Shown: positions 1,943 to 63,806, counted from the stretch's first letter. The stretch: 64,000 bases of DNA from an uncultured virus (IMG/VR IMGVR_UViG_3300035698_022433) (IMGVR_UViG_3300035698_022433), one strand, 5' to 3'. Notes: generated by a model not told the origin, from the letters alone. Translations and numbers: made by a program.

Positions 1943-2713
1943 ATGAGTGATAAAAGCCTTGCTCTTAAAGGATTTGATGATATCAATAAAATCCTTGAAA
2001 AGCATTCGATACAGCTTTGGGCAGATTTAGGAACATTGCTTGGTTTTGTTAGAGATGGTGCACTCATTCCCTGGGAAGAAGATATAGATGTTGGGTGTTT
2101 CCAACAAATGGAGGATTTTAGTAATGTTGTACAGCTTGATTTGTTTACTCATGGATGGTTATGTGTCGATAAATATAAAGGGCTTGGTATTCAAGATATC
2201 AAAAAGACAGCAAAAATCGACATTAAATTTTACGAAGAAAATGAAGATTCAGTTAGTGCAAATTTTATTACTTACCGGCATAAGAAAGTAATGGCTTTTG
2301 CTGATTTTTTAGTATGGATTTTTAATTTGTATCCAGCTTATTTCAAATATGAAACAAGTTTACCACCAGAGAAATTACAATTGATTGAAGGCTTTGTTGC
2401 TTTTTTTGTTCCGAATAAGATACGTAAAGCTATTTTAAAAATTGCTTGGTTCTTTCATAATAATGTTGGAATAAATGGTTATATAGTGAAAACACCACAT
2501 GAATATATTTTGCCTTTACAGAAAATAAAAATAAATAAATATCAATTTCTTGTACCAGCAATGAGTATTGGATATGTAGAGAAAATGTATGGTGAAAATT
2601 GGAAAAAACCAATGCAGATTATTGAAGGCACAAATTCTTACCCAGATGGTTCAAGTAGATATTTAACGAAAAGAATTATGGACAAATCACCAGATAGTGT
2701 TGAACATGCTTAG
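1943..2713 (+). CDS. LicD-family phosphotransferase
   Basis: GTLLGFVRDGALIPWEEDIDVG and C-terminal YGENWKKP motifs. Confidence 0.88.
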   Translation: MSDKSLALKGFDDINKILEKHSIQLWADLGTLLGFVRDGALIPWEEDIDVGCFQQMEDFSNVVQLDLFTHGWLCVDKYKGLGIQDIKKTAKIDIKFYEENEDSVSANFITYRHKKVMAFADFLVWIFNLYPAYFKYETSLPPEKLQLIEGFVAFFVPNKIRKAILKIAWFFHNNVGINGYIVKTPHEYILPLQKIKINKYQFLVPAMSIGYVEKMYGENWKKPMQIIEGTNSYPDGSSRYLTKRIMDKSPDSVEHA

Positions 2714-3647
2714 AATAAAAGAAAGTACAAAAAATCATAAAAATCAATTGGAGAGGTGGCTAGGATATGAAGATGGAATTGGAAAGAAAGGAATTGAATT
2801 GTTTGAAAAGAACGGAATCGCATTTGTCGGTGAGGGAGAAACAGGAGATATTGGGATTTCTTGGCATGGCTTTAAGGTCGAGGGAATAAAGCAAAAAGAC
2901 TGTATCTTGATGAAAAATGAACCGCCAATATATTATTCGTTGTTTAATCGAAAAATGAATAATCCGGGGTATAATAAGAAATTTTTATGTGCGATGGCTA
3001 GTCATCGGTTGGAAGGATTTGATCAGTATTATTATAACATTCCGCGATATGAGTTTAATCTTGTTGAAGAACATTTTGGTACACCTAAAGAACGATTGTT
3101 GTGTATGATTTTGCGGAATAAAAATAAATCATATTTGTTCAATAAGTATTCTCCGGGAACACGAAAATACAATACGCAGAGTTTGATTAAGTTCAGACAG
3201 ATGGCAGATAAGGTTTTTTGTCAATACTTTGATTCAAGTGTATACAATTCATATGGTGGTCCGTGGAAATATCCGTGTTATTGCGGAGAAGTTAAAGAGA
3301 ATGGTAAGTGGGAGGTTTTTGCAAAATACAAATTTACTTTTTGTCCAGAGAATTCACGGTTTTATGGATATGTCTGTGAGAAGGCAGTGCAGCCGCAATG
3401 TTGTGGTTCAGTTCCCATTTATTTTGGTGCTTATGATGTTAACGAATATTTGCCAAAGGGAACATTCATCAATTACGCAAATTTTAAGAGTGTTAAATCA
3501 TTATGTGAATATATTACTGGAATGGATGAGAATGAATATAATATCTATTTACGAAATATCAAAAAGTTTGTAACATCGCAGAATGCATTTTCTTCGGTAT
3601 TATTTGCAATGAGATTTTTAAAAGTATTAAATGAGGTGAAAAAATAA
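2706..3647 (+). CDS. Glycosyltransferase family 10 (fucosyltransferase-like)
   Basis: YKFTFCPENS..GYVCEK...CGSVPIYFGA matches the GT10 signature. Start placed at ATG 2706. Confidence 0.82.
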   Translation: MLRIKESTKNHKNQLERWLGYEDGIGKKGIELFEKNGIAFVGEGETGDIGISWHGFKVEGIKQKDCILMKNEPPIYYSLFNRKMNNPGYNKKFLCAMASHRLEGFDQYYYNIPRYEFNLVEEHFGTPKERLLCMILRNKNKSYLFNKYSPGTRKYNTQSLIKFRQMADKVFCQYFDSSVYNSYGGPWKYPCYCGEVKENGKWEVFAKYKFTFCPENSRFYGYVCEKAVQPQCCGSVPIYFGAYDVNEYLPKGTFINYANFKSVKSLCEYITGMDENEYNIYLRNIKKFVTSQNAFSSVLFAMRFLKVLNEVKK

Positions 3648-51385: not shown

Positions 51386-51788
51386 ATAATTTGTATATTA
51401 ATTATATGGTTTAAGGGAAACACTAGAGCAGGTTCAATCCCTGCTCGGGGGTCCGTTTAGTCAAAAAGTAAAACATTTATACTGATAAGCCATTAACGAA
51501 AGAATAAGGTGAAAAAATATGACAGTAGAATATGAGGACTATCATTTAGTCGAAGGAAAAATAAGTTTGAAGGATGGGAAAACATACAGTAGGTATTTCT
51601 TTGCAAAAAGAGATGTCAAAGATGATGAAACACTCGTAGACAAACTACCAGCCGGATATGAAATAGTTCCACCAAAGAGAAAGGGAGGTTTCCCATTTCT
51701 CAAAAAGACAAAGTAGATAGCTTTTGTGCTATCTATCACCATTTTTTAACCATAGAAAAGTTTATAAACCCTTTTTTTCTTACATTAA

Positions 51789-51872
51789 TTAGGCAGTGAA
51801 GCGTAGAGTTACTTCGATTGCTAAGGAAACCGATGGGCTAACGCCTAAATACTCTATGCGTTTATCTCCTAA
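51789..51872 (+). ncRNA. Ro60-associated (Y-RNA-like) RNA, copy 1
   Basis: CAGTG-NN-GCGTAGAGTTACTTCG...ACTCTATGC.TTTATCT with terminal ttagg/cctaa stem. Downstream of a TATA box (about 51760) and upstream of the TROVE gene. Confidence 0.65.
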
Positions 51873-51906
51873 CACGAACTCAATGGTTCATCCCGTTGTT
51901 TTCGCA

Positions 51907-52011
51907 TGGACAGTGTTGTGTAGAGTTACTTCGCACATGAAATGTACGGTGTGGGAGTCACCAATCTCCACTCAAAAATTAAAATGGAATCCTCTGCACA
52001 CTTATCTTCCA
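51907..52011 (+). ncRNA. Ro60-associated (Y-RNA-like) RNA, copy 2
   Basis: CAGTG-NN-GTGTAGAGTTACTTCG...CTCTGCACA.TTATCT with tgga/tcca stem. Pairing is retained despite sequence changes from copy 1. Confidence 0.65.
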
Positions 52012-52295
52012 AACAAAAGAAATCCTACCACCAAGCGGTTGTAGGTGTTCGTGTCTTTTTTGTTTGTTCTGTCTATTAAAAAGGAAGTGTAAGAAATGAA
52101 ACAAAAACCAAAAGTCGTATTCAGTTGTTTTTTTTGTGAAAAAAGAATAGAAGATGCTGAAAAATTAGCACTTGACGAAGAAGGCAATTGTATAACTTCA
52201 CAAAGTAAACAATTAACCGATGAGGATAGTCATTTTATATGCCCAGTATGTTGGACAAAAGTCAAAAAATTTTGTGACATAAAGGAGGAAAAATA

Positions 52296-53879
52296 ATGGC
52301 AAAATTAACATCAAAAACTACAGGCAAAAGAAAAACAACTAACTACATGGGTGAACCAGCATATGAGTTAAATCCAAAAGATAAACTTGTAAACTTATGT
52401 GCGACTTGTATGTTCGGTGAACCTAAGTATTACGGTAAAGTAGATAAACAAATTTTAAAAGCTTGCGACGACATAGCAAAAAAAGATGCCGAGTTTATTC
52501 TCAAATTAGCTGCTTACTGTCGTAACGAGCTTTATCTACGTACTATTTCAACAGTGCTTTTTGTCAAAGCTGCAAACTTAAAGCAACTCAAAGGCACTGG
52601 ACTAATAAAAAAATACGCACCATTCATTCTAAAACGTGCAGACGAAATCAATGAGGCATTAGCCTGCCAACTTAAACTATTCGATAAGCCAATTCCAAAT
52701 TCATTAAAGAAAGCCATAGTAAAAGTATTTCCAAGTTTCGATACGTATCAATTTGGAAAATATAATCGAAAGACCGATGTTTCATTTAAATCAGCAATTA
52801 TGCTCACTCATCCAAAAGAACCTTCTGATATAATTAAAAAAATCCTTGATGATACTCTTGAAACACCATATACATGGGAAACGGAATTATCAGAGAAAGG
52901 GAATAAAGCAGAAGTGTGGGACAAACTAATTGAATTAAGGAAACTCGGTTATTTTGCTGCTATACGAAACATTAATAATATGATAAAAGCTGGAATTACA
53001 AAACACAAAATGATAATAGACTATATCACTAACCCGGTGGCAATTAAAAATTCAAAACTACTTCCAGTTCGATTCTTATCAGCATATGAAGCAATCAATA
53101 GCAAGTCAAGCGGTCTTTTTGAAAGTGATATAGATATTGCTAAAAAATTCAAGAAAGCCGTAAGTGATGCTCTTCAAATGTCAACTAAAACAAACGTTCC
53201 ACAAGTTCCAGGAAAAACAATTGTAATCTGTGATAACTCGGGTAGTGCGCGCGGCGATGCTGGCGGACGTTCAAAGCTAAGCATTAAATCAGCTAGAACA
53301 ATGGCAGACACCGGAAACCTAATGGGGCTGATGACTTGGTACGCATGTGATGATACAATCTTCGGTGTATTCGGCGATCGCTTGACATTAGTACGACCGG
53401 ATAGAGAAAAACCAATTCTTGACAACTTCGCAGCAGTAAATGAAGCAGGTTCAAATGTTGGTGGTTCAACAGAAGAAGGTGTATTCGTAATGCTTGAAAA
53501 AATGATTAAAGACAAAATCAAAGCTGACCGTTTAATCGTTTGCTCTGACCTACAAATCGGAGATGGAAAAAACAGTGAATACGGACTCGGACTATCACGA
53601 CGCAACGGCGACTACGACAGAACTGTTCCTAAGCTACTAAAGACATACAGAGACACAATCAATCCAAACATTAAGTATTACAGTATCTGCTTTAGTGGGT
53701 ATGGTACAGATGTCATAGAAAATGACCGCATACTAATTAATGGCTGGAGCGATCGAATCTTCAAATTCATCAATACGACAGAAACAAGCCAAACAAAATA
53801 TATTGATGAGAGCTACACACTTGATGAGCTCTCATTACAAACGCCCAAAATACAAAAACAAGAGGTGAAAAAACAATGA
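52296..53879 (+). CDS. TROVE-domain Ro60/Rsr ribonucleoprotein with vWA domain
   Basis: TTNYMGEPAY, A.Y.RNELYLR, RADE, FDTYQFGKYN, TWE..LS, A.IRN, LLP.RF, vWA DNSGS and SDLQ. Confidence 0.92.
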   Translation: MAKLTSKTTGKRKTTNYMGEPAYELNPKDKLVNLCATCMFGEPKYYGKVDKQILKACDDIAKKDAEFILKLAAYCRNELYLRTISTVLFVKAANLKQLKGTGLIKKYAPFILKRADEINEALACQLKLFDKPIPNSLKKAIVKVFPSFDTYQFGKYNRKTDVSFKSAIMLTHPKEPSDIIKKILDDTLETPYTWETELSEKGNKAEVWDKLIELRKLGYFAAIRNINNMIKAGITKHKMIIDYITNPVAIKNSKLLPVRFLSAYEAINSKSSGLFESDIDIAKKFKKAVSDALQMSTKTNVPQVPGKTIVICDNSGSARGDAGGRSKLSIKSARTMADTGNLMGLMTWYACDDTIFGVFGDRLTLVRPDREKPILDNFAAVNEAGSNVGGSTEEGVFVMLEKMIKDKIKADRLIVCSDLQIGDGKNSEYGLGLSRRNGDYDRTVPKLLKTYRDTINPNIKYYSICFSGYGTDVIENDRILINGWSDRIFKFINTTETSQTKYIDESYTLDELSLQTPKIQKQEVKKQ

Positions 53880-54119
53880 AAATGGAACATAATATATACC
53901 TTATAGAAGCGACTAAGAGAGCGGAACAGCCATACGATTCATATGATTCTCATGTAGTGATTGCCGACAAACCTGGAGAAGTTAGAAAAATGTGTCCATC
54001 AGCAGACGAAGGAGAAGAAGTGTGGTTGCAATCCGCATATTCTACTATCAAGAAAGTTGGCGAGAGTGACTTGAAGAAACAAGTCATCTTATCATCATTC
54101 AATGCAGGGTGAAAAAACA

Positions 54120-54581
54120 ATGAAAATAGGAGAAGCGTTAACAGAAAAGAAAAGGCTGCAGTCCGACCTAGCAAAGGTCAATGAATTAATTGAAAGTAAC
54201 TTTACTTACAAAGCAGGTACAAGACCTGATTTTGATGTAGCGAAGCTTTTTGCCGAACAAGTAAGACTTGTAAAACAAATTCTTGAATTAAAAATAAAAA
54301 TACAGAAAACAAACGCAGATATAACAGTTCCATTCGGAGGCAGTGACTTTACTCTTCAAGAACTCATCATAACACTAGGTGACCTTCGTTCAGAGATTTC
54401 TGTTTTCAACTCGCTCTATGCAACAAAAGACCGTATGTTCCGTTATTCAGATGATGACGTCGAAACAGTTACACAAATTCCGTTGGACGAAATTCAAAAA
54501 ACAGTTCGAGCTCTCAATGAGAAAAAGACCAAGTTAGACTCGTTGTTGCAACGCACTAACTGGACTGTCGAACTAATTTAG
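54120..54581 (+). CDS. DIP1984-like coiled-coil protein
   Basis: MKIGEAL.....LQ, L...IQKTN, LD..LQRTNWTVELI termini typical of the family. Confidence 0.75.
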   Translation: MKIGEALTEKKRLQSDLAKVNELIESNFTYKAGTRPDFDVAKLFAEQVRLVKQILELKIKIQKTNADITVPFGGSDFTLQELIITLGDLRSEISVFNSLYATKDRMFRYSDDDVETVTQIPLDEIQKTVRALNEKKTKLDSLLQRTNWTVELI

Positions 54582-54582
54582 A

Positions 54583-54760
54583 CTCACACCCTTCGGGGTT
54601 TGGGAATAGGTTGTCATGAAGTAGAAGAGTGTAAAGGATTGTAACCTGTGATGCTTCAAAGCTTACAGATTTTCAACCATCAAAGATTACACTGTTGAGC
54701 GTGTCTCTCAGTTTAAGGCTTATCAGTTCATGTGAACTCTCCGTATTCTGGCAACCTATT
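54583..54760 (+). ncRNA. Structured RNA downstream of the DIP1984-like gene, with 8-nt periodic interior
   Basis: C(UUCG)G hairpin, then 12-bp stem aataggttgtca/tggcaacctatt enclosing 13 phased octamers. Confidence 0.65.
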
Positions 54761-54772
54761 TATTATTCTTTT

Positions 54773-54805
54773 AAAGTATTAAATTATTAGAAACATTTAA
54801 ATACT
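54773..54805 (+). promoter_or_regulatory. Conserved BRE/TATA promoter
   Basis: aaagtattaaattattagaaacatttaaatact. Confidence 0.65.
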
Positions 54806-56877
54806 AAATATTCATATAATATACTAAGGTTCCAATGGTAGAACCAAATGAAGGAAAATAAAATGACAGTACTCGGAAGCGGCGACAAACATTATTTGCC
54901 AAAGGTAATAGAAGACAACGATAAATATTATGATGTATTAGATAAACTTGTAGATGACCTCCTTACAAAAAAAATCCATAATTTATCTATTGGTTTTGAT
55001 TATCAGTACATTGTTTTTAAAGGCAACATCAAAGTAAAGAAACAAAAGATACATGACAGAGATTATCTTTCCATTTCAAATGATGGTGTAAATTTTGATA
55101 TGAACTACAATCAGTTTACAGAAATAATAATACGGAGAACTGGAATCGTTGAGATAGAAACACATGGCGGCGGAATTGTTTTTGATTTTGGAAAGGTGAA
55201 AAAATGAAACAAGAAGATGTATTTAGAATACAAATGGAATTGGCGTTACTAAAAGAAGGTTTCTATGACGATTACATATATGAATATATAGACGTTAAAC
55301 AAAATCATGACAAGTTAGAGAAAGATTTTGAAAGTAATTTATATGAAAGAATTAGTGAAAACAACAGGAGAAGAACTAAATATAAAATAACGATTGAGAT
55401 ACTACGAATTTGGTGGTATATGCAAAAGAGACCAGAATTGTTTGACGAAAAATTAAAATCAAAATTTAATTAATGTGAAAAAATGAAATATAAAATAAAA
55501 ACTTTTATAGAGCAAAACGAACGCATTCCTGTTACAAAGGAATTTATTACAAAAAACAAGTTGCATATGGCAAGAACATCAGAAGCTATCTTGCATAAAA
55601 TAAAAGAACACGATGATGAAATATTCGATTTTTGGGGTAGTGAGTTAATACATTATTTGCCATATCAATTAGCTAAACCACAACTTACTGATGAAGCACA
55701 AAAGAAGTATTATTCAGGTAAAGGAACTTGGAAACAAATTACTGAAGTTGAAGAAGCCGTACAAGACTTCTTAGACTATATGGTTTTTGCATGGGAAAAG
55801 GCAGAGAACATGAGAGGATTATCTGCATCAAGAAGCATTAACAAATTAAGTTGTTGGATGTGGCTTCTTGGCAGAGAAGATGTTATGGAAGTTTTAACTG
55901 ATGATTCTTTATACAATCCATATGGTACGCCGGCATTAGTTAAAGCATGTGAGATGCTAGGAATTAAGGTATCTGATGCTTTTATTAAATTTTCTGGTAT
56001 AAAGGTATGATGATAGAAAATGAATAATGTTCCAATGTTATTGATAGTATTTTTTTTTATACTACTACCAACCGATTTTATTTTTATTTATTTGTATAAG
56101 AGGAGTGGAAGAACAAATCGTGTTGCATCGTTTTTAATTGGTGGTATTATTGGAGTAATATCAATGGCAATATCAATGTTCATAACAGGTGAAATATAAT
56201 GACTGACGATGCAATAACATGGATAATATTCTTTTTGATAATGATACCAGGCAATTTACTTTTTAATTACTGGTATAGGAAAGATGAAAATTCAAGTAAC
56301 ATTGTTTCTATTGCTGTTGGTTTTGTTATAGGAATAATATCAATGTTTGTGTCTATGTACATAGTTGGAGGATTAAAATGATAAAAGAACTTAAAGAAAA
56401 AATAAAAAAGTTAGAAAGTGAAGTTGAACTTGAACATTCAGAGACATTAATTAAAAGAAAAACACTTCAAGAGTTAAAAATGAAGTTAGCCGAAAACACA
56501 AAGTCTGATTTAATTGGCAAGTGTTTTAAGCAATTAGTTAAACAAACAGATAAAACATATGAAGACGATTATTGGAGTTATATAAAAATTTTAGGCCTTA
56601 GGGATGACCGACAAGTTTACATAGATTCATTTTCTGTAAACACCATCAAATATAAGGAACCAAAAACTCAGTTCGTTTTTGTTGTAAATGAAAACTTATA
56701 CATGCAGTTTTTAGGTAAGTTTGGTTACAAAGAAATAACAGAAGAAGAATACAACCAAGCATTAAAGGAAAATTTGGAGAGGGTTGGAATATGCATGAAT
56801 AAAAGTCCTTGCCAAAAATGTGGATTACCAGAAGACATTTGTGTTTGTGAAGAAATAATGAAAGAAGTTGGAATAAA

Positions 56878-57543
56878 ATGAAATACCCAAAAATCAACAC
56901 CCTCTGGAAAAGAGATATGGAAAACAAAGGAAAGATAATTGAAGGTGAATATTCTTGCCCAGAGTTTAAAAACATAAAACTATGGAGAGTGAGCGAAAAA
57001 ATACATGGAACTAACATAAGAATCATATACAAAAAAGGTTCATTATCAAAAGTGTTATTTGCTGGCAAAACAGATAATGCAATAATAGAACCAGAACTTT
57101 TAGAATATCTTGAAGAAACGTTTACATCAGAAAAAATGGAAAAGGCACTTATGTTTAAAGATGAGCTTCCACAAGAAGCAGTTCTTTATGGTGAAGGCTA
57201 CGGTCCGAAAATCCAGAAGGGTGGCGGAAGATATAGAGATGATGCCTCTGTTATTCTCTTTGATATTAAAGTAGATGAATGGTGGCTTGAAAGAGAAGAT
57301 GTAGAAGATATTGCTAAAAAACTCAAAATTGATTTAGTTCCTGATCTTGGATTAATGACCGAAGAAGAAATAGTTTTTTTAGTCAGAAACACAGGATATC
57401 ACCTTAAAGGTTTCAAGTCTGTAATATCAAAAGACAAAACTCTCGATGCAGAAGGAATTGTTGCAAGAAGTTATCCATTGGTATTATTCAGAGATGGCAA
57501 ACCTTTAATGTTCAAACTGAAACAGGAGGATTTTAAAAAATGA
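56878..57543 (+). CDS. ATP-dependent RNA ligase family (Rnl2-like adenylyltransferase)
   Basis: YPKI, motif I EKIHGTN, LYGE, FDI, EGIV, FKLK. Confidence 0.85.
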   Translation: MKYPKINTLWKRDMENKGKIIEGEYSCPEFKNIKLWRVSEKIHGTNIRIIYKKGSLSKVLFAGKTDNAIIEPELLEYLEETFTSEKMEKALMFKDELPQEAVLYGEGYGPKIQKGGGRYRDDASVILFDIKVDEWWLEREDVEDIAKKLKIDLVPDLGLMTEEEIVFLVRNTGYHLKGFKSVISKDKTLDAEGIVARSYPLVLFRDGKPLMFKLKQEDFKK

Positions 57544-61942: not shown

Positions 61943-62023
61943 GCCAACGTAGTCAAGTGGTCTAAGACGACGGGTTTAGGACCCGTGCGTAGGCAATCGT
62001 CGGTTCAAATCCGTCCGTTGGCA
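61943..62023 (+). tRNA. tRNA-Leu(TAG)
   Basis: gccaacg/cgttggc acceptor, acggg-tttagga-cccgt anticodon arm, ttcaaat T-loop, no encoded CCA. Confidence 0.88.
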
Positions 62024-62166
62024 CTATGAAAATAAAACAAACCTAAGATGAGCAACGGGAAGTTGCGTGTCTTAGGAAATGTATATGCGTAGACATAGTG
62101 GAAAAAAGTATTATGCAAGAAAGTTCAATCAACAAAGACGAAAATTGGTTAAAGAAATAAACAAAA

Positions 62167-62252
62167 GCAGGAGTGGCAGAGTGGTCTATCGTCACGGGGT
62201 GCTAACCCGATGAATCATTGAGATTGCGTCCGTTCGAATCGGACCTCCTGCG
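62167..62252 (+). tRNA. tRNA-Ser(GCT)
   Basis: gcaggag/ctcctgc+g acceptor, cggg-gtgctaa-cccg anticodon arm, long variable arm, gtccg-ttcgaat-cggac T arm. Confidence 0.85.
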
Positions 62253-62255
62253 TAG

Positions 62256-62930
62256 GTGAATATCATGCGTCAATGGCGAAGATATAAAAGTACATATCGG
62301 ATAAAGCATCCACAGTATTACATTAAAGGAAAACGCAACCTCACTCGTCAAGAGGAACGCACTCTCTTTGGTGGTACAGTTACTGTTACTGAGAAGATGG
62401 ATGGTGCCAACACTGGTCTATTCAAAAAGAACGACAAGATGTTCCTACAAAAACGCGGCAGCCTCGTCGACGATAGTCATCCACAATTTAAGTTCTTCAA
62501 AAATCAATGGTTTTGGGACAACTACGAAAAGCTCGAACAACTCCCCGACAACGCAGTAACGTATGGTGAATTAATGCGCTGCACTCACACAATCCACTAC
62601 GACAAACTCCCGGATTGGTGGTTGGTCTTTGATATCTACGATTTACAAAAACATCAATATCTTCCTTGGCATGAAGTAGCAAGAATCTGTTACGACATTG
62701 GATTGTCAACTGTACCACACATATTCACTGGTAGTTGTATGGACAGACCGACGATATCAGAAATAATGCCAATTGAATCTATATACGGCAACAGGGCAGA
62801 AGGAATAGTAGTAAAGAATTACAAAAAACAAATGAGAGGAAAAGTAGTTCATCCCGAATTTATAAAAGACCCTAGTTTCGATAAACATTGGTCTAGCAGA
62901 ACTGCAACATTTAATAAATTGGAGAGGTGA
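62256..62930 (+). CDS. RNA ligase family protein
   Basis: Motif I TEKMDGAN, YGE, HTIHY..LP, FDIYD, EGIVVK. Confidence 0.85.
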   Translation: MNIMRQWRRYKSTYRIKHPQYYIKGKRNLTRQEERTLFGGTVTVTEKMDGANTGLFKKNDKMFLQKRGSLVDDSHPQFKFFKNQWFWDNYEKLEQLPDNAVTYGELMRCTHTIHYDKLPDWWLVFDIYDLQKHQYLPWHEVARICYDIGLSTVPHIFTGSCMDRPTISEIMPIESIYGNRAEGIVVKNYKKQMRGKVVHPEFIKDPSFDKHWSSRTATFNKLER

Positions 62931-63011
62931 CCGAGCACGGTTTATGGTGGGCGCCTTGAGAGCGTCAGTGTAGTAAAAGCTACACCAGCGGTTCAAATCC
63001 GCTTCTCTCCG
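62921..63011 (+). tRNA. tRNA-Ser(TGA)
   Basis: ggagagg/tctctcc+g acceptor, ggcgc-cttgaga-gcgtc anticodon arm, gtgtag/ctacac variable arm, agcgg-ttcaaat-ccgct T arm. Confidence 0.88.
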
Positions 63012-63012
63012 T

Positions 63013-63324
63013 ATGAAAAACCAAAACAGAGCAAAGTTCAGAGAATCCGTATTCAAACGGGACAATAACAAATGTGTAGTTTGTTCTGAGAAAGCAGTTG
63101 ATGCGCATCATTTAATTGAAAGACGATTATGGAAAGAACCATCTGAACAAGGCGGATACATAGTAGATAATGGAGTATCACTTTGTTCACAACATCATAT
63201 AGATGCAGAAAAAAATATCATATTACCAAAAACACTGAGAGAATATGCTGGTATAAAGAAGATAGTTTTACCATTAGGTTTTGATGAAACAAAGGAATAT
63301 AATAAATGGGGAAAACTTATTTAA
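63013..63324 (+). CDS. HNH endonuclease
   Basis: FRESVFKRDNNKCVVC...DAHH...NGVSLC..HH. Confidence 0.85.
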   Translation: MKNQNRAKFRESVFKRDNNKCVVCSEKAVDAHHLIERRLWKEPSEQGGYIVDNGVSLCSQHHIDAEKNIILPKTLREYAGIKKIVLPLGFDETKEYNKWGKLI

Positions 63325-63495
63325 GCCCTTTACCATTCTTTTTTATGCTTGGGGGCAACTTGGTTTACCATTGACCTGTATGAAAATATGAACCCACATC
63401 TATCCCAATATCAAAGGGATGTTCTATTCAATTAAGCTATACCATACAGGTCTACTGGTAAAAACATTTAAATATACCATTGTCTTTCGCTATTT

Positions 63496-63806
63496 AGATG
63501 CAGAATAGACTGGGGAGTTTGGTGTTCCCTTTGCACAAATCGCCAATAGTGGGTCGAATCCAAAGGGCAGTGTACGACTCCCTTTTGACTTCAACGTTAA
63601 ACAATGATGATTCGTCCCTCGGAATCTAAGTCGTTGGCTATGTTAAATCGGAAGATTTAATAACCTTCATTATTAGATAAATCGGGCGAGGCACGGAAGT
63701 GAGCAGCCTTAATCTAAACTATAGGTGTTCAAGGGTCTGCGGATTTGAGAATAGTGCTGATTATCAATTGGATAGTACGATATTCACCTGCGGAGTTTCT
63801 GCGTCT
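63496..63806 (+). ncRNA. ffs: Archaeal-type signal recognition particle (7S/SRP) RNA
   Basis: 311 nt. Terminal helix agatgcagaa/ttctgcgtct, Alu-like domain closed by gggagt/actccc, helix 6 gttaaatc-GGAA-gatttaat, helix 8 AGG-cac-GGAA-gtg-AGCAG. TATA box about 25 nt upstream. Confidence 0.85.

Follow-up and report, generated by a model that had tools for sequence, protein, structure and literature searches.

Y RNAs, the partners of Ro60, are held by a long terminal stem with the Ro60 site, joined to an effector loop. In the SmpB-tmRNA system (tmRNA, transfer-messenger RNA) the gene of a small protein is followed by that of its partner RNA, which has tRNA-like elements, and the pair is conserved and universal. 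The oligomeric trp RNA-binding attenuation protein (TRAP) reads evenly spaced short motifs in the trp leader RNA, triplets separated by spacers of 2-3 nucleotides (nt). Type III antitoxin RNAs are built of much longer repeats, tens of nt each, and precede a ToxN/AbiQ-type endoribonuclease toxin. The locus considered here lies in a stretch of 64,000 nt catalogued as an uncultured virus (IMG/VR IMGVR_UViG_3300035698_022433), called the window in the following, where the gene of a DIP1984/DUF6847 protein of 153 amino acids (aa; 54120-54581, + strand) is followed by a structured RNA of 156 nt (54605-54760). We consider it probable that this RNA is the dedicated partner of the DIP1984 protein encoded upstream of it, the two forming a two-part ribonucleoprotein (RNP) module in which a phased array of short motifs in the RNA would be the protein-binding platform. 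This was judged the best reading because the pairing of gene and RNA is strict, the two read as a single transcription unit, and the phased array is conserved and single-stranded.

Relatives of the DIP1984 protein were obtained by protein search from genomes of the Nanoarchaeota/Woesearchaeota type, and 160 loci (80 from genomes, 80 from metagenomes) were retrieved with a 13-sequence alignment. In 152 of these a structured RNA was found directly 3' of the DIP1984 gene and on its strand; of the eight loci that gave none, five had less than 180 nt of 3' sequence. The same linkage was seen in whole genomes, searched with covariance models of the archaeal (R1) and bacterial (R2) RNAs described below. 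All five bacterial carrier genomes held one R2 copy each, at the DIP1984 locus. Among 151 genomes of one bacterial class, the R2 RNA occurred in seven and DUF6847 above the cut-off in the same seven, with gene and RNA abutting on the same strand, while the other 144 had neither. Among 151 genomes of one archaeal phylum DUF6847 was present in four, and the R1 RNA in the same four, 26-41 nt downstream. An earlier note on this DNA had taken the RNA as belonging with the DIP1984 gene and not as a chance hairpin, and both the locus counts and the adjacent co-occurrence in whole genomes bear this out. Gene and RNA occur together in DPANN archaea and, among bacteria, in Firmicutes, Negativicutes, Actinobacteria and Betaproteobacteria. 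Genes of the family are also carried on plasmids; the module is sporadic, being present in 1.5-5% of the genomes sampled.

The genes around the module are not shared between loci. Indeed, 149 open reading frames (ORFs) flanking 30 loci had no family in common, and the ORFs directly upstream of DIP1984 were lineage-specific. In that place Sutterellaceae have an unknown gene of 350-440 aa, Clostridia a different one within the same size range, and Veillonella a GNAT acetyltransferase. In 15 archaeal loci (L003, L017, L022, L027, L028, L089, L090, L104, L109, L111, L122, L123, L137, L142, L153) DIP1984 is preceded by a conserved ORF family of 59-81 aa, with no Pfam or NCBIfam match, which ends 45-100 nt before the DIP1984 start. 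Regarding transcription, a promoter match of 12/12 was found before the DIP1984 gene of locus L061, and a strong intrinsic terminator of 19 base pairs (bp) after the RNA of locus L045; no terminator-like site between gene and RNA was found in these two loci when they were scanned. From such signals gene and RNA read as one transcription unit, each of the two loci presenting a part of the layout.

Most loci have an ORF-free gap of 150-400 nt 3' of the DIP1984 gene, in which a closing stem starts 10-45 nt past the stop codon and spans 140-235 nt; the sequences of this stem differ between loci. On a plain MAFFT alignment of 51 archaeal-type RNAs, RNAalifold gave a closing stem (P1) of 11 bp with compensatory changes at 11 of 11 pairs, and many of its G-U pairs are compatible with the + strand only. 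In 24 long-form RNAs, 42 pairs (P1 with its continuation, an inner helix P2 and a long hairpin P3) were 85.5% paired, compared with 37-55% when the partner was slid, and none of 500 shuffles was as high. On a model-fitted alignment, which is biased towards the structure used to fit it, 40 of 41 modelled pairs were compensatory and the inner helices of the relatives were 71.6-93.3% paired. The weakest of these was P2, with 54.8% paired on the MAFFT alignment and 71.6% on the model-fitted one. R1 matched on the strand of the gene, just 3' of it, in all 24 archaeal loci among L001-L080 and in 44 of the 47 loci of archaeal type in the set L081-L160 (68/71 overall), and its three misses were two truncated contigs and L081, which is the window's own duplicate. 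Rfam 15 gave nothing in the RNA region of the window, either at the gathering threshold or at E up to 10, and nothing 3' of the DIP1984 gene in the loci of 13 relatives; in locus L057, at E up to 10, the only rows were tRNA-like and at chance level.

Of all features of the archaeal RNA, its phased motif is the best conserved. In 60 model-aligned RNAs eight successive heptamers U-Y-A-n-n-G-n follow one another, the U and the A being present in 95-100% and the G in 60-98%, and the array is unpaired in the consensus folds of archaeal-type RNAs. The earlier note had described this part of the window as 13 octamers, with T at position 2 in 12 of them and A at position 5 in nine, and had expected a closing stem with the same phasing 3' of DIP1984 homologues. 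The letter counts, the stem-closed RNA and a phased motif were all found, but the unit is a heptamer. Column information at period 8 over the 104 nt of the octamers had z 4.0 (p 0.0005 against 2000 mononucleotide shuffles), with the scored segment and its phase chosen post hoc, and autocorrelation in the window was about equal at lag 7 (z 2.1) and lag 8 (z 2.45). Among the 51 distinct archaeal-type RNAs, that of the window included, the best lag was 7 in 48, 8 in two and 6 in one, so an 8-nt period in the relatives was not borne out. The U-Y-A triplets of the window start at 54656, 54663, 54673, 54680, 54687, 54708, 54713, 54720, 54723 and 54728, with spacings of 7, 10, 7, 7, 21, 5, 7, 3 and 5 (mean 8.0 over 54656-54728), and since these spacings average 8.0, we regard the octamer phase as an average of a heptamer array with insertions. 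The first three octamers do not belong to the array, as they fall in the conserved leader UGUGAUGC. Typical archaeal copies have eight units, and the window about 9-10, irregularly spaced.

All elements of the window RNA lie on the + strand. Between the stop codon and the closing stem there is a hairpin with a UUCG loop (54588-54599, with CCC(UUCG)GGG at 54589-54598), seen in the sequence and in the minimum free energy (MFE) fold, and archaeal relatives likewise have a hairpin in this place. The closing stem P1 begins 24 nt past the DIP1984 stop and joins 54605-54616 to 54749-54760 by 12 bp, one of them G-U; its strands are apparent from the sequence, the MFE fold and the relatives. It is continued in the MFE fold by an inner stem, whose 5' strands (54618-54630) are GAA at 54618-54620 and AGAGU at 54626-54630, pairing with UUC at 54745-54747 and ACUCU at 54736-54740, respectively (3' strands, 54736-54747). 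The hairpin, the 12-bp stem and its AGAGU/ACUCU extension had been placed by the earlier note at the correct positions throughout. The leader motif UGUGAUGC at 54647-54654 aligns to the family consensus, as do the first two U-Y-A units, and stands just 5' of the array of U-Y-A(-n-n-G) units with base period 7 and insertions (54656-54730), which was delimited by the triplet positions and the relatives. After P1 a T-rich tract (54760-54776) can be read, possibly the end of the transcript. The fold energy of 54575-54790 was modestly below that of shuffles (z -2.18); because the fold energy of the window copy is only modestly unusual, the claim of structure rests on the relatives.

The window RNA is the most divergent archaeal member seen. 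It has no long inner hairpin of the kind used to build R1, and its array is irregular. With the family it has in common the strand of the gene, a distance of at most about 50 nt from the stop, a stem of at least 10 bp formed by its ends, and the leader UGUGAUGC followed by a tandem U-Y-A-n-n-G-n array, whose intervals include four of exactly 7 and one of 21. The closest protein relatives (loci L082 and L083, 47% identity) have a short RNA which R1 matched over its full length at 26-34 bits, and this RNA is identical to that of the window over a stretch which begins late in the leader and takes in the first two repeats. On its position, closing stem, leader and array we therefore file the window RNA as a putative divergent member of the archaeal family. 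A search of four DNA runs, with contigs taken at 80% likeness, returned identical fragments and unrelated short pieces and no variants of the window-type RNA; the stretch 53900-54900 is present in salt-lake metagenome runs and in no RNA run listed.

In bacteria, 44 of 65 distinct 3' flanks (Clostridia, Negativicutes, Actinobacteria) were connected by sequence similarity. The RNAs of this class have short invariant blocks (GGUAG on the 5' side, Y-U-A-C-C, and a 3' tail rich in G) and form three long-range helices, all 14 pairs of which were compensatory. Of the bacterial loci, R2 matched 54 of 56 in the set L023-L080, where the two without a match are truncated, and 30 of 33 in L081-L160 (84/89 overall), as well as a copy on a Streptomyces plasmid, where the RNA lies in an unannotated stretch. 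The archaeal and bacterial RNAs 3' of DIP1984 are two new RNA classes with no family in Rfam 15. Four A's, 6-7 nt apart, are invariant in 30 of 30 bacterial RNAs between the core and the Y-U-A-C-C block; they mark a shorter counterpart of the archaeal array, which in bacteria has 5-6 phased Y-A steps, and we infer a common origin of the two classes. A hairpin resembling a tRNA T-arm was found in 15 of the 30 bacterial RNAs and a YrlA-like GNCGAAN0-1G motif in 13 of them, and one bacterial copy had a weak tRNA-Sec-like match (17 bits, E 0.7). No T-arm was found in the 51 archaeal RNAs or in the window. The copy on the Acinetobacter baumannii plasmid pA1-1 (L165) was not matched by R2. There (2432-3388) the DIP1984 gene is followed by about 495 nt with no annotation, in which a 10-bp closing stem and related short motifs can be seen by eye.

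The start of the window protein, 54120, was set by the invariant N-terminus of the family. It matched PF20935 with E 1.5e-22 (80.5 bits, cut-off 27) and NF038048 with 96.8 bits (cut-off 70), and a profile match to PDB 3KDQ, the sole solved relative, of unknown function, had E 3.7e-13. An AlphaFold2 model (mean predicted local distance difference test score 82) was a four-helix bundle with small strands, and Foldseek found it to resemble 3KDQ only (E 1e-4, TM score 0.61). At E <=0.001 the family comprises 1273 representatives, clustered at 50% identity, and among the best 150 of these nearly all are stand-alone proteins of about 150-165 aa. The residues invariant across both domains of life are few, M1, E5, A6, L7, L57, N65, Q144, N147 and W148, and polar or aromatic; the order of the helices should bring them together at one end of the bundle.

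On these grounds DIP1984 is probably the protein half of an RNP. The module would run in the order promoter, small helical protein, structured RNA, terminator. A long stem from both ends would hold the RNA and present the mostly single-stranded U-Y-A array, and the protein would bind this array with several protomers per RNA, each using the conserved polar and aromatic patch (E5, N65, Q144, N147, W148) at the tip of its bundle. A number of observations weigh against this. Firstly, a full-length R1 match of the window RNA fails, and the local match found with filters off (8.7 bits; E 0.049 in 1.2 kb, covariance-model E-values being rough after a short calibration) comprises the leader and first repeats, so the window copy is taken as a member for its position, its architecture, the leader and first repeats that it has in common with the family, and the weak L082/L083 matches. 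Secondly, the two RNA classes do not find each other, as R1 found no bacterial locus and R2 no archaeal one. Thirdly, a fifth R1 RNA in the sample of the archaeal phylum is a weak orphan without a gene, and near-duplicate loci are many (e.g., gut Sutterellaceae), so that the locus counts exceed the number of independent events. Finally, the AlphaFold2 model matched no known RNA-binding fold and no nuclease, and the protein is not notably basic, with a pI of 5.1-9.3 in the family and 5.6 in the window. The orphan (L167, G093:C8, 1195-1345) is a shortened archaeal RNA with the closing stem and few heptamers, and no DIP1984 ORF stands upstream of it.

The best surviving alternative, which we nevertheless find rather unlikely, is that the RNA is a cis-acting element in the 3' untranslated region of the DIP1984 mRNA (serving, for example, in termination, stabilisation or autoregulation) and neither a separate stable RNA nor part of a particle. 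It would agree with the placement of the RNA, which begins 9-47 nt past the stop with no space for a promoter of its own and has a terminator or T-tract after it, and with gene and RNA being on the same strand throughout. However, a length of 150-230 nt, at least three covarying helices and a strictly conserved array of 56 nt go far beyond what termination or stabilisation needs, and the orphan RNA occurs where the gene does not. Autoregulation through protein binding would itself make an RNP and so overlaps with the partner-RNA reading.

A toxin-antitoxin-like or defence module, in which the repeat RNA neutralises the small protein, or is processed by it, in a type III-like manner, is in our opinion improbable. 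Such a role would suit a short-repeat RNA paired with a small protein, and neighbours of the module in DPANN genomes include ParE, PIN/UPF0175 and nucleotidyltransferase modules. Small plasmids of Acinetobacter often carry the family, this genus accounting for 324 of the 335 plasmid records in which it occurs; according to a review (PMC5559437), such plasmids bear toxin-antitoxin pairs as well. Against this, no tested protein had a PADLOC match at E 0.01 or better, bar one row at chance level, the protein is a helical bundle with no nuclease match, and the bacterial module stands amid housekeeping operons (his, ilv, aro, nrd). The type III RNAs outlined at the beginning differ too, in their much longer repeats and in their position upstream of the toxin.

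Even less weight is given to an autonomous RNA (a tRNA mimic, a self-assembling RNA or a ribozyme) with DIP1984 as a helper or regulatory link only. The T-arm-like hairpin in half of the 30 bacterial copies, the tRNA-Sec-like match and the orphan copy could be read in this way, but strict 1:1 co-occurrence and adjacency would then be unexpected, and the T-arm is missing from the archaeal RNAs and from the window.

The Ro60 gene upstream raises the remaining alternative. In the window a tight series of + strand ORFs is made up of the Ro60/TROVE protein gene (52296-53879, PF05731, E 2.6e-36), an ORF of 78 aa (53876-54112), whose start overlaps the Ro60 stop, and the DIP1984/DUF6847 gene, which begins 8 nt past the 78-aa ORF. 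With ORFs overlapping or 8 nt apart, it is plausible that the DIP1984 RNA is co-transcribed with Ro60, as the earlier note had assumed. The association with Ro60 did not recur in the relatives. In a tblastn search with the window Ro60, the gene adjoined DIP1984 in one of 160 loci, and this one was the window's own duplicate; sensitivity was adequate, since phages and another archaeon both gave Ro60 matches to the same query, at 23-31% identity. TROVE was found in none of the 149 flanking ORFs and in none of five archaeal and five bacterial carrier genomes, and among 401 genomes of the archaeal phylum it was present in two and DUF6847 in six, with no overlap. Ro60 is thus a neighbour in one genome and not a component. 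In a control genome, that of Deinococcus radiodurans, there were matches to both TROVE and DUF6847 (PF20935).

The features of YrlA RNAs, including tRNA-like T and D stem-loops and the Ro60-binding motif GNCGAAN0-1G or GGUCCGA on the 5' strand, were taken from PMC4201824. Neither form of the motif occurs in window 54590-54780, and a tRNA-like T-arm was not found in the window RNA, where Rfam and ARAGORN were silent. The window RNA does have the long stem formed from the 5' and 3' ends that is a trait of Y RNAs, and another such trait, proximity to Ro60 (same strand, less than 4 kb away), holds in the window only and not in the relatives. Better candidates stand directly upstream of Ro60. Two adjacent stretches of about 100-140 nt (51790-52050) each carry (A/G)GAGUUACUUCG and fold into long end-formed stems (z -2.2 and z -2.6), and the same motif and architecture were found in another DPANN-type genome (L163, 4772-4860), in a gap of 120 nt from an RNA ligase gene to the Ro60 gene. 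By motif and fold these three stretches are likely archaeal Y-RNA-like partners of Ro60, better suited to this role than the RNA at 54605-54760. Within 4 kb of two phage Ro60 genes R2 found nothing. That the window RNA is the Y RNA of the neighbouring Ro60, as its place about 725 nt downstream on the same strand in the tight ORF series, its end-formed stem and the motif and hairpin of the bacterial class might suggest, is therefore highly improbable, and it is the weakest of the alternatives.

Other features of the window and its relatives were recorded as well. The 78-aa ORF belongs to no Pfam or NCBIfam family, was found solely in the window's duplicate locus, and is unrelated to the ORF family preceding DIP1984 in the 15 archaeal loci (hhalign probability 0.1%). 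The ORF-free gap after the DIP1984 stop is about 265 nt long, with the next gene at 54848, and the rest of the window consists mostly of short ORFs on the same strand. An RNA ligase gene (PF09414) lies at 56878-57543, 2 kb downstream of the module; ligases of the same family were seen in L109 (6009-6656), about 550 nt past the DIP1984 stop and beyond the RNA, and in L163 (3716-4771), directly upstream of the Ro60 gene. Near the end of the window, at 61943-63804, there are genes of three tRNAs (Leu, Ser, Ser) and a signal recognition particle RNA of archaeal type (139.8 bits), and phage Ro60 genes are also located in tRNA clusters. At 51405-51450, where ARAGORN calls no tRNA, a stem of 5 bp and the loop UUCAAUC form a hairpin resembling a T-arm, perhaps a fragment or an element similar to a tRNA. 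Phage DNA gave no match to window 52296-54800, tblastn found no DIP1984 homologues in phages, and scans of viral contigs with the single DIP1984 and Ro60 proteins returned no relatives.

With DIP1984 and its RNA taken as an RNP, its form and role can be suggested tentatively, at a level of confidence well below that of the partnership. The particle, present in Archaea and Bacteria, might carry one protomer per 7-nt unit, as a ring or a short filament closed by the terminal stem, and might serve RNA surveillance or repair in parallel to Ro60-Y RNA. Such a role is suggested by the tRNA-like hairpin and YrlA-like motif of many bacterial RNAs, the Ro60 operon of the window and the nearby RNA ligase genes (window and L109). 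In that case Acinetobacter plasmids would encode a subunit of the particle under the misnomer 'septicolysin'. Under that name the gene appears in older records and in papers on A. baumannii plasmids, the latter treating it as a putative cytolysin (PMC5559437). The cytolysin label looks unfounded for a helical protein of 150 aa, and our analysis suggests that the name, repeated as a virulence-factor label in A. baumannii, is uninformative on function.

The earlier note knew of no described function for this pairing, and none was found here: texts on DIP1984, DUF6847, PF20935, 3KDQ, NF038048 and IPR047741 held incidental mentions only (subscription journals and supplements being outside the scope of the search), none among the matches listed linked 'septicolysin' to an RNA motif, and a term search of a large paper on the discovery of noncoding RNAs (PMC11109978) gave no relevant passage. 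For a family of about 1273 clusters with a crystal structure and an unknown function, a partner RNA is the first concrete lead. The unusually regular heptamer array of the archaeal class eases binding and structure experiments, and few RNPs besides the universal ones span Archaea and Bacteria.

Compared with the described systems, the module resembles each of them in part. Type III toxin-antitoxin systems (ToxIN-like) likewise pair a repeat RNA genetically with a small protein and occur on plasmids; in the DIP1984 module the unit is 7 nt and not tens of nt, the RNA lies downstream, and the protein is not a nuclease of the ToxN/AbiQ type. With SmpB-tmRNA the module has in common a small protein gene directly followed by its RNA, the tRNA-like elements of the RNA, and the conservation of the pair, but the DIP1984 RNA lacks an acceptor stem, a CCA end and a reading frame for a tag, the module is sporadic, and the protein fold is distinct. 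As in Ro60-Y RNA (Rsr-YrlA), a protein gene stands beside an RNA of 100-200 nt closed by a stem formed from its ends, and the bacterial-class RNAs often have a T-arm-like hairpin and a GNCGAAN0-1G-like motif. The partner is, however, a helical bundle of 150 aa and not a TROVE ring, the carrier genomes have no Ro60, and the window RNA has neither the Ro60 motif nor tRNA-like arms; to our knowledge, Y RNAs have not been described with a phased heptamer array. For the array itself the likeness is to TRAP and the trp leader, where single-stranded RNA also repeats a motif of 2-3 nt many times at a constant distance, a layout which suggests one site per protomer of an oligomer. The DIP1984 RNA differs from it in a spacing of 7 nt and the motif U-Y-A...G, the protein fold is unrelated and its oligomer is so far a proposal, and the array sits inside an RNA that is closed by a stem and encoded 3' of the gene of its own protein.

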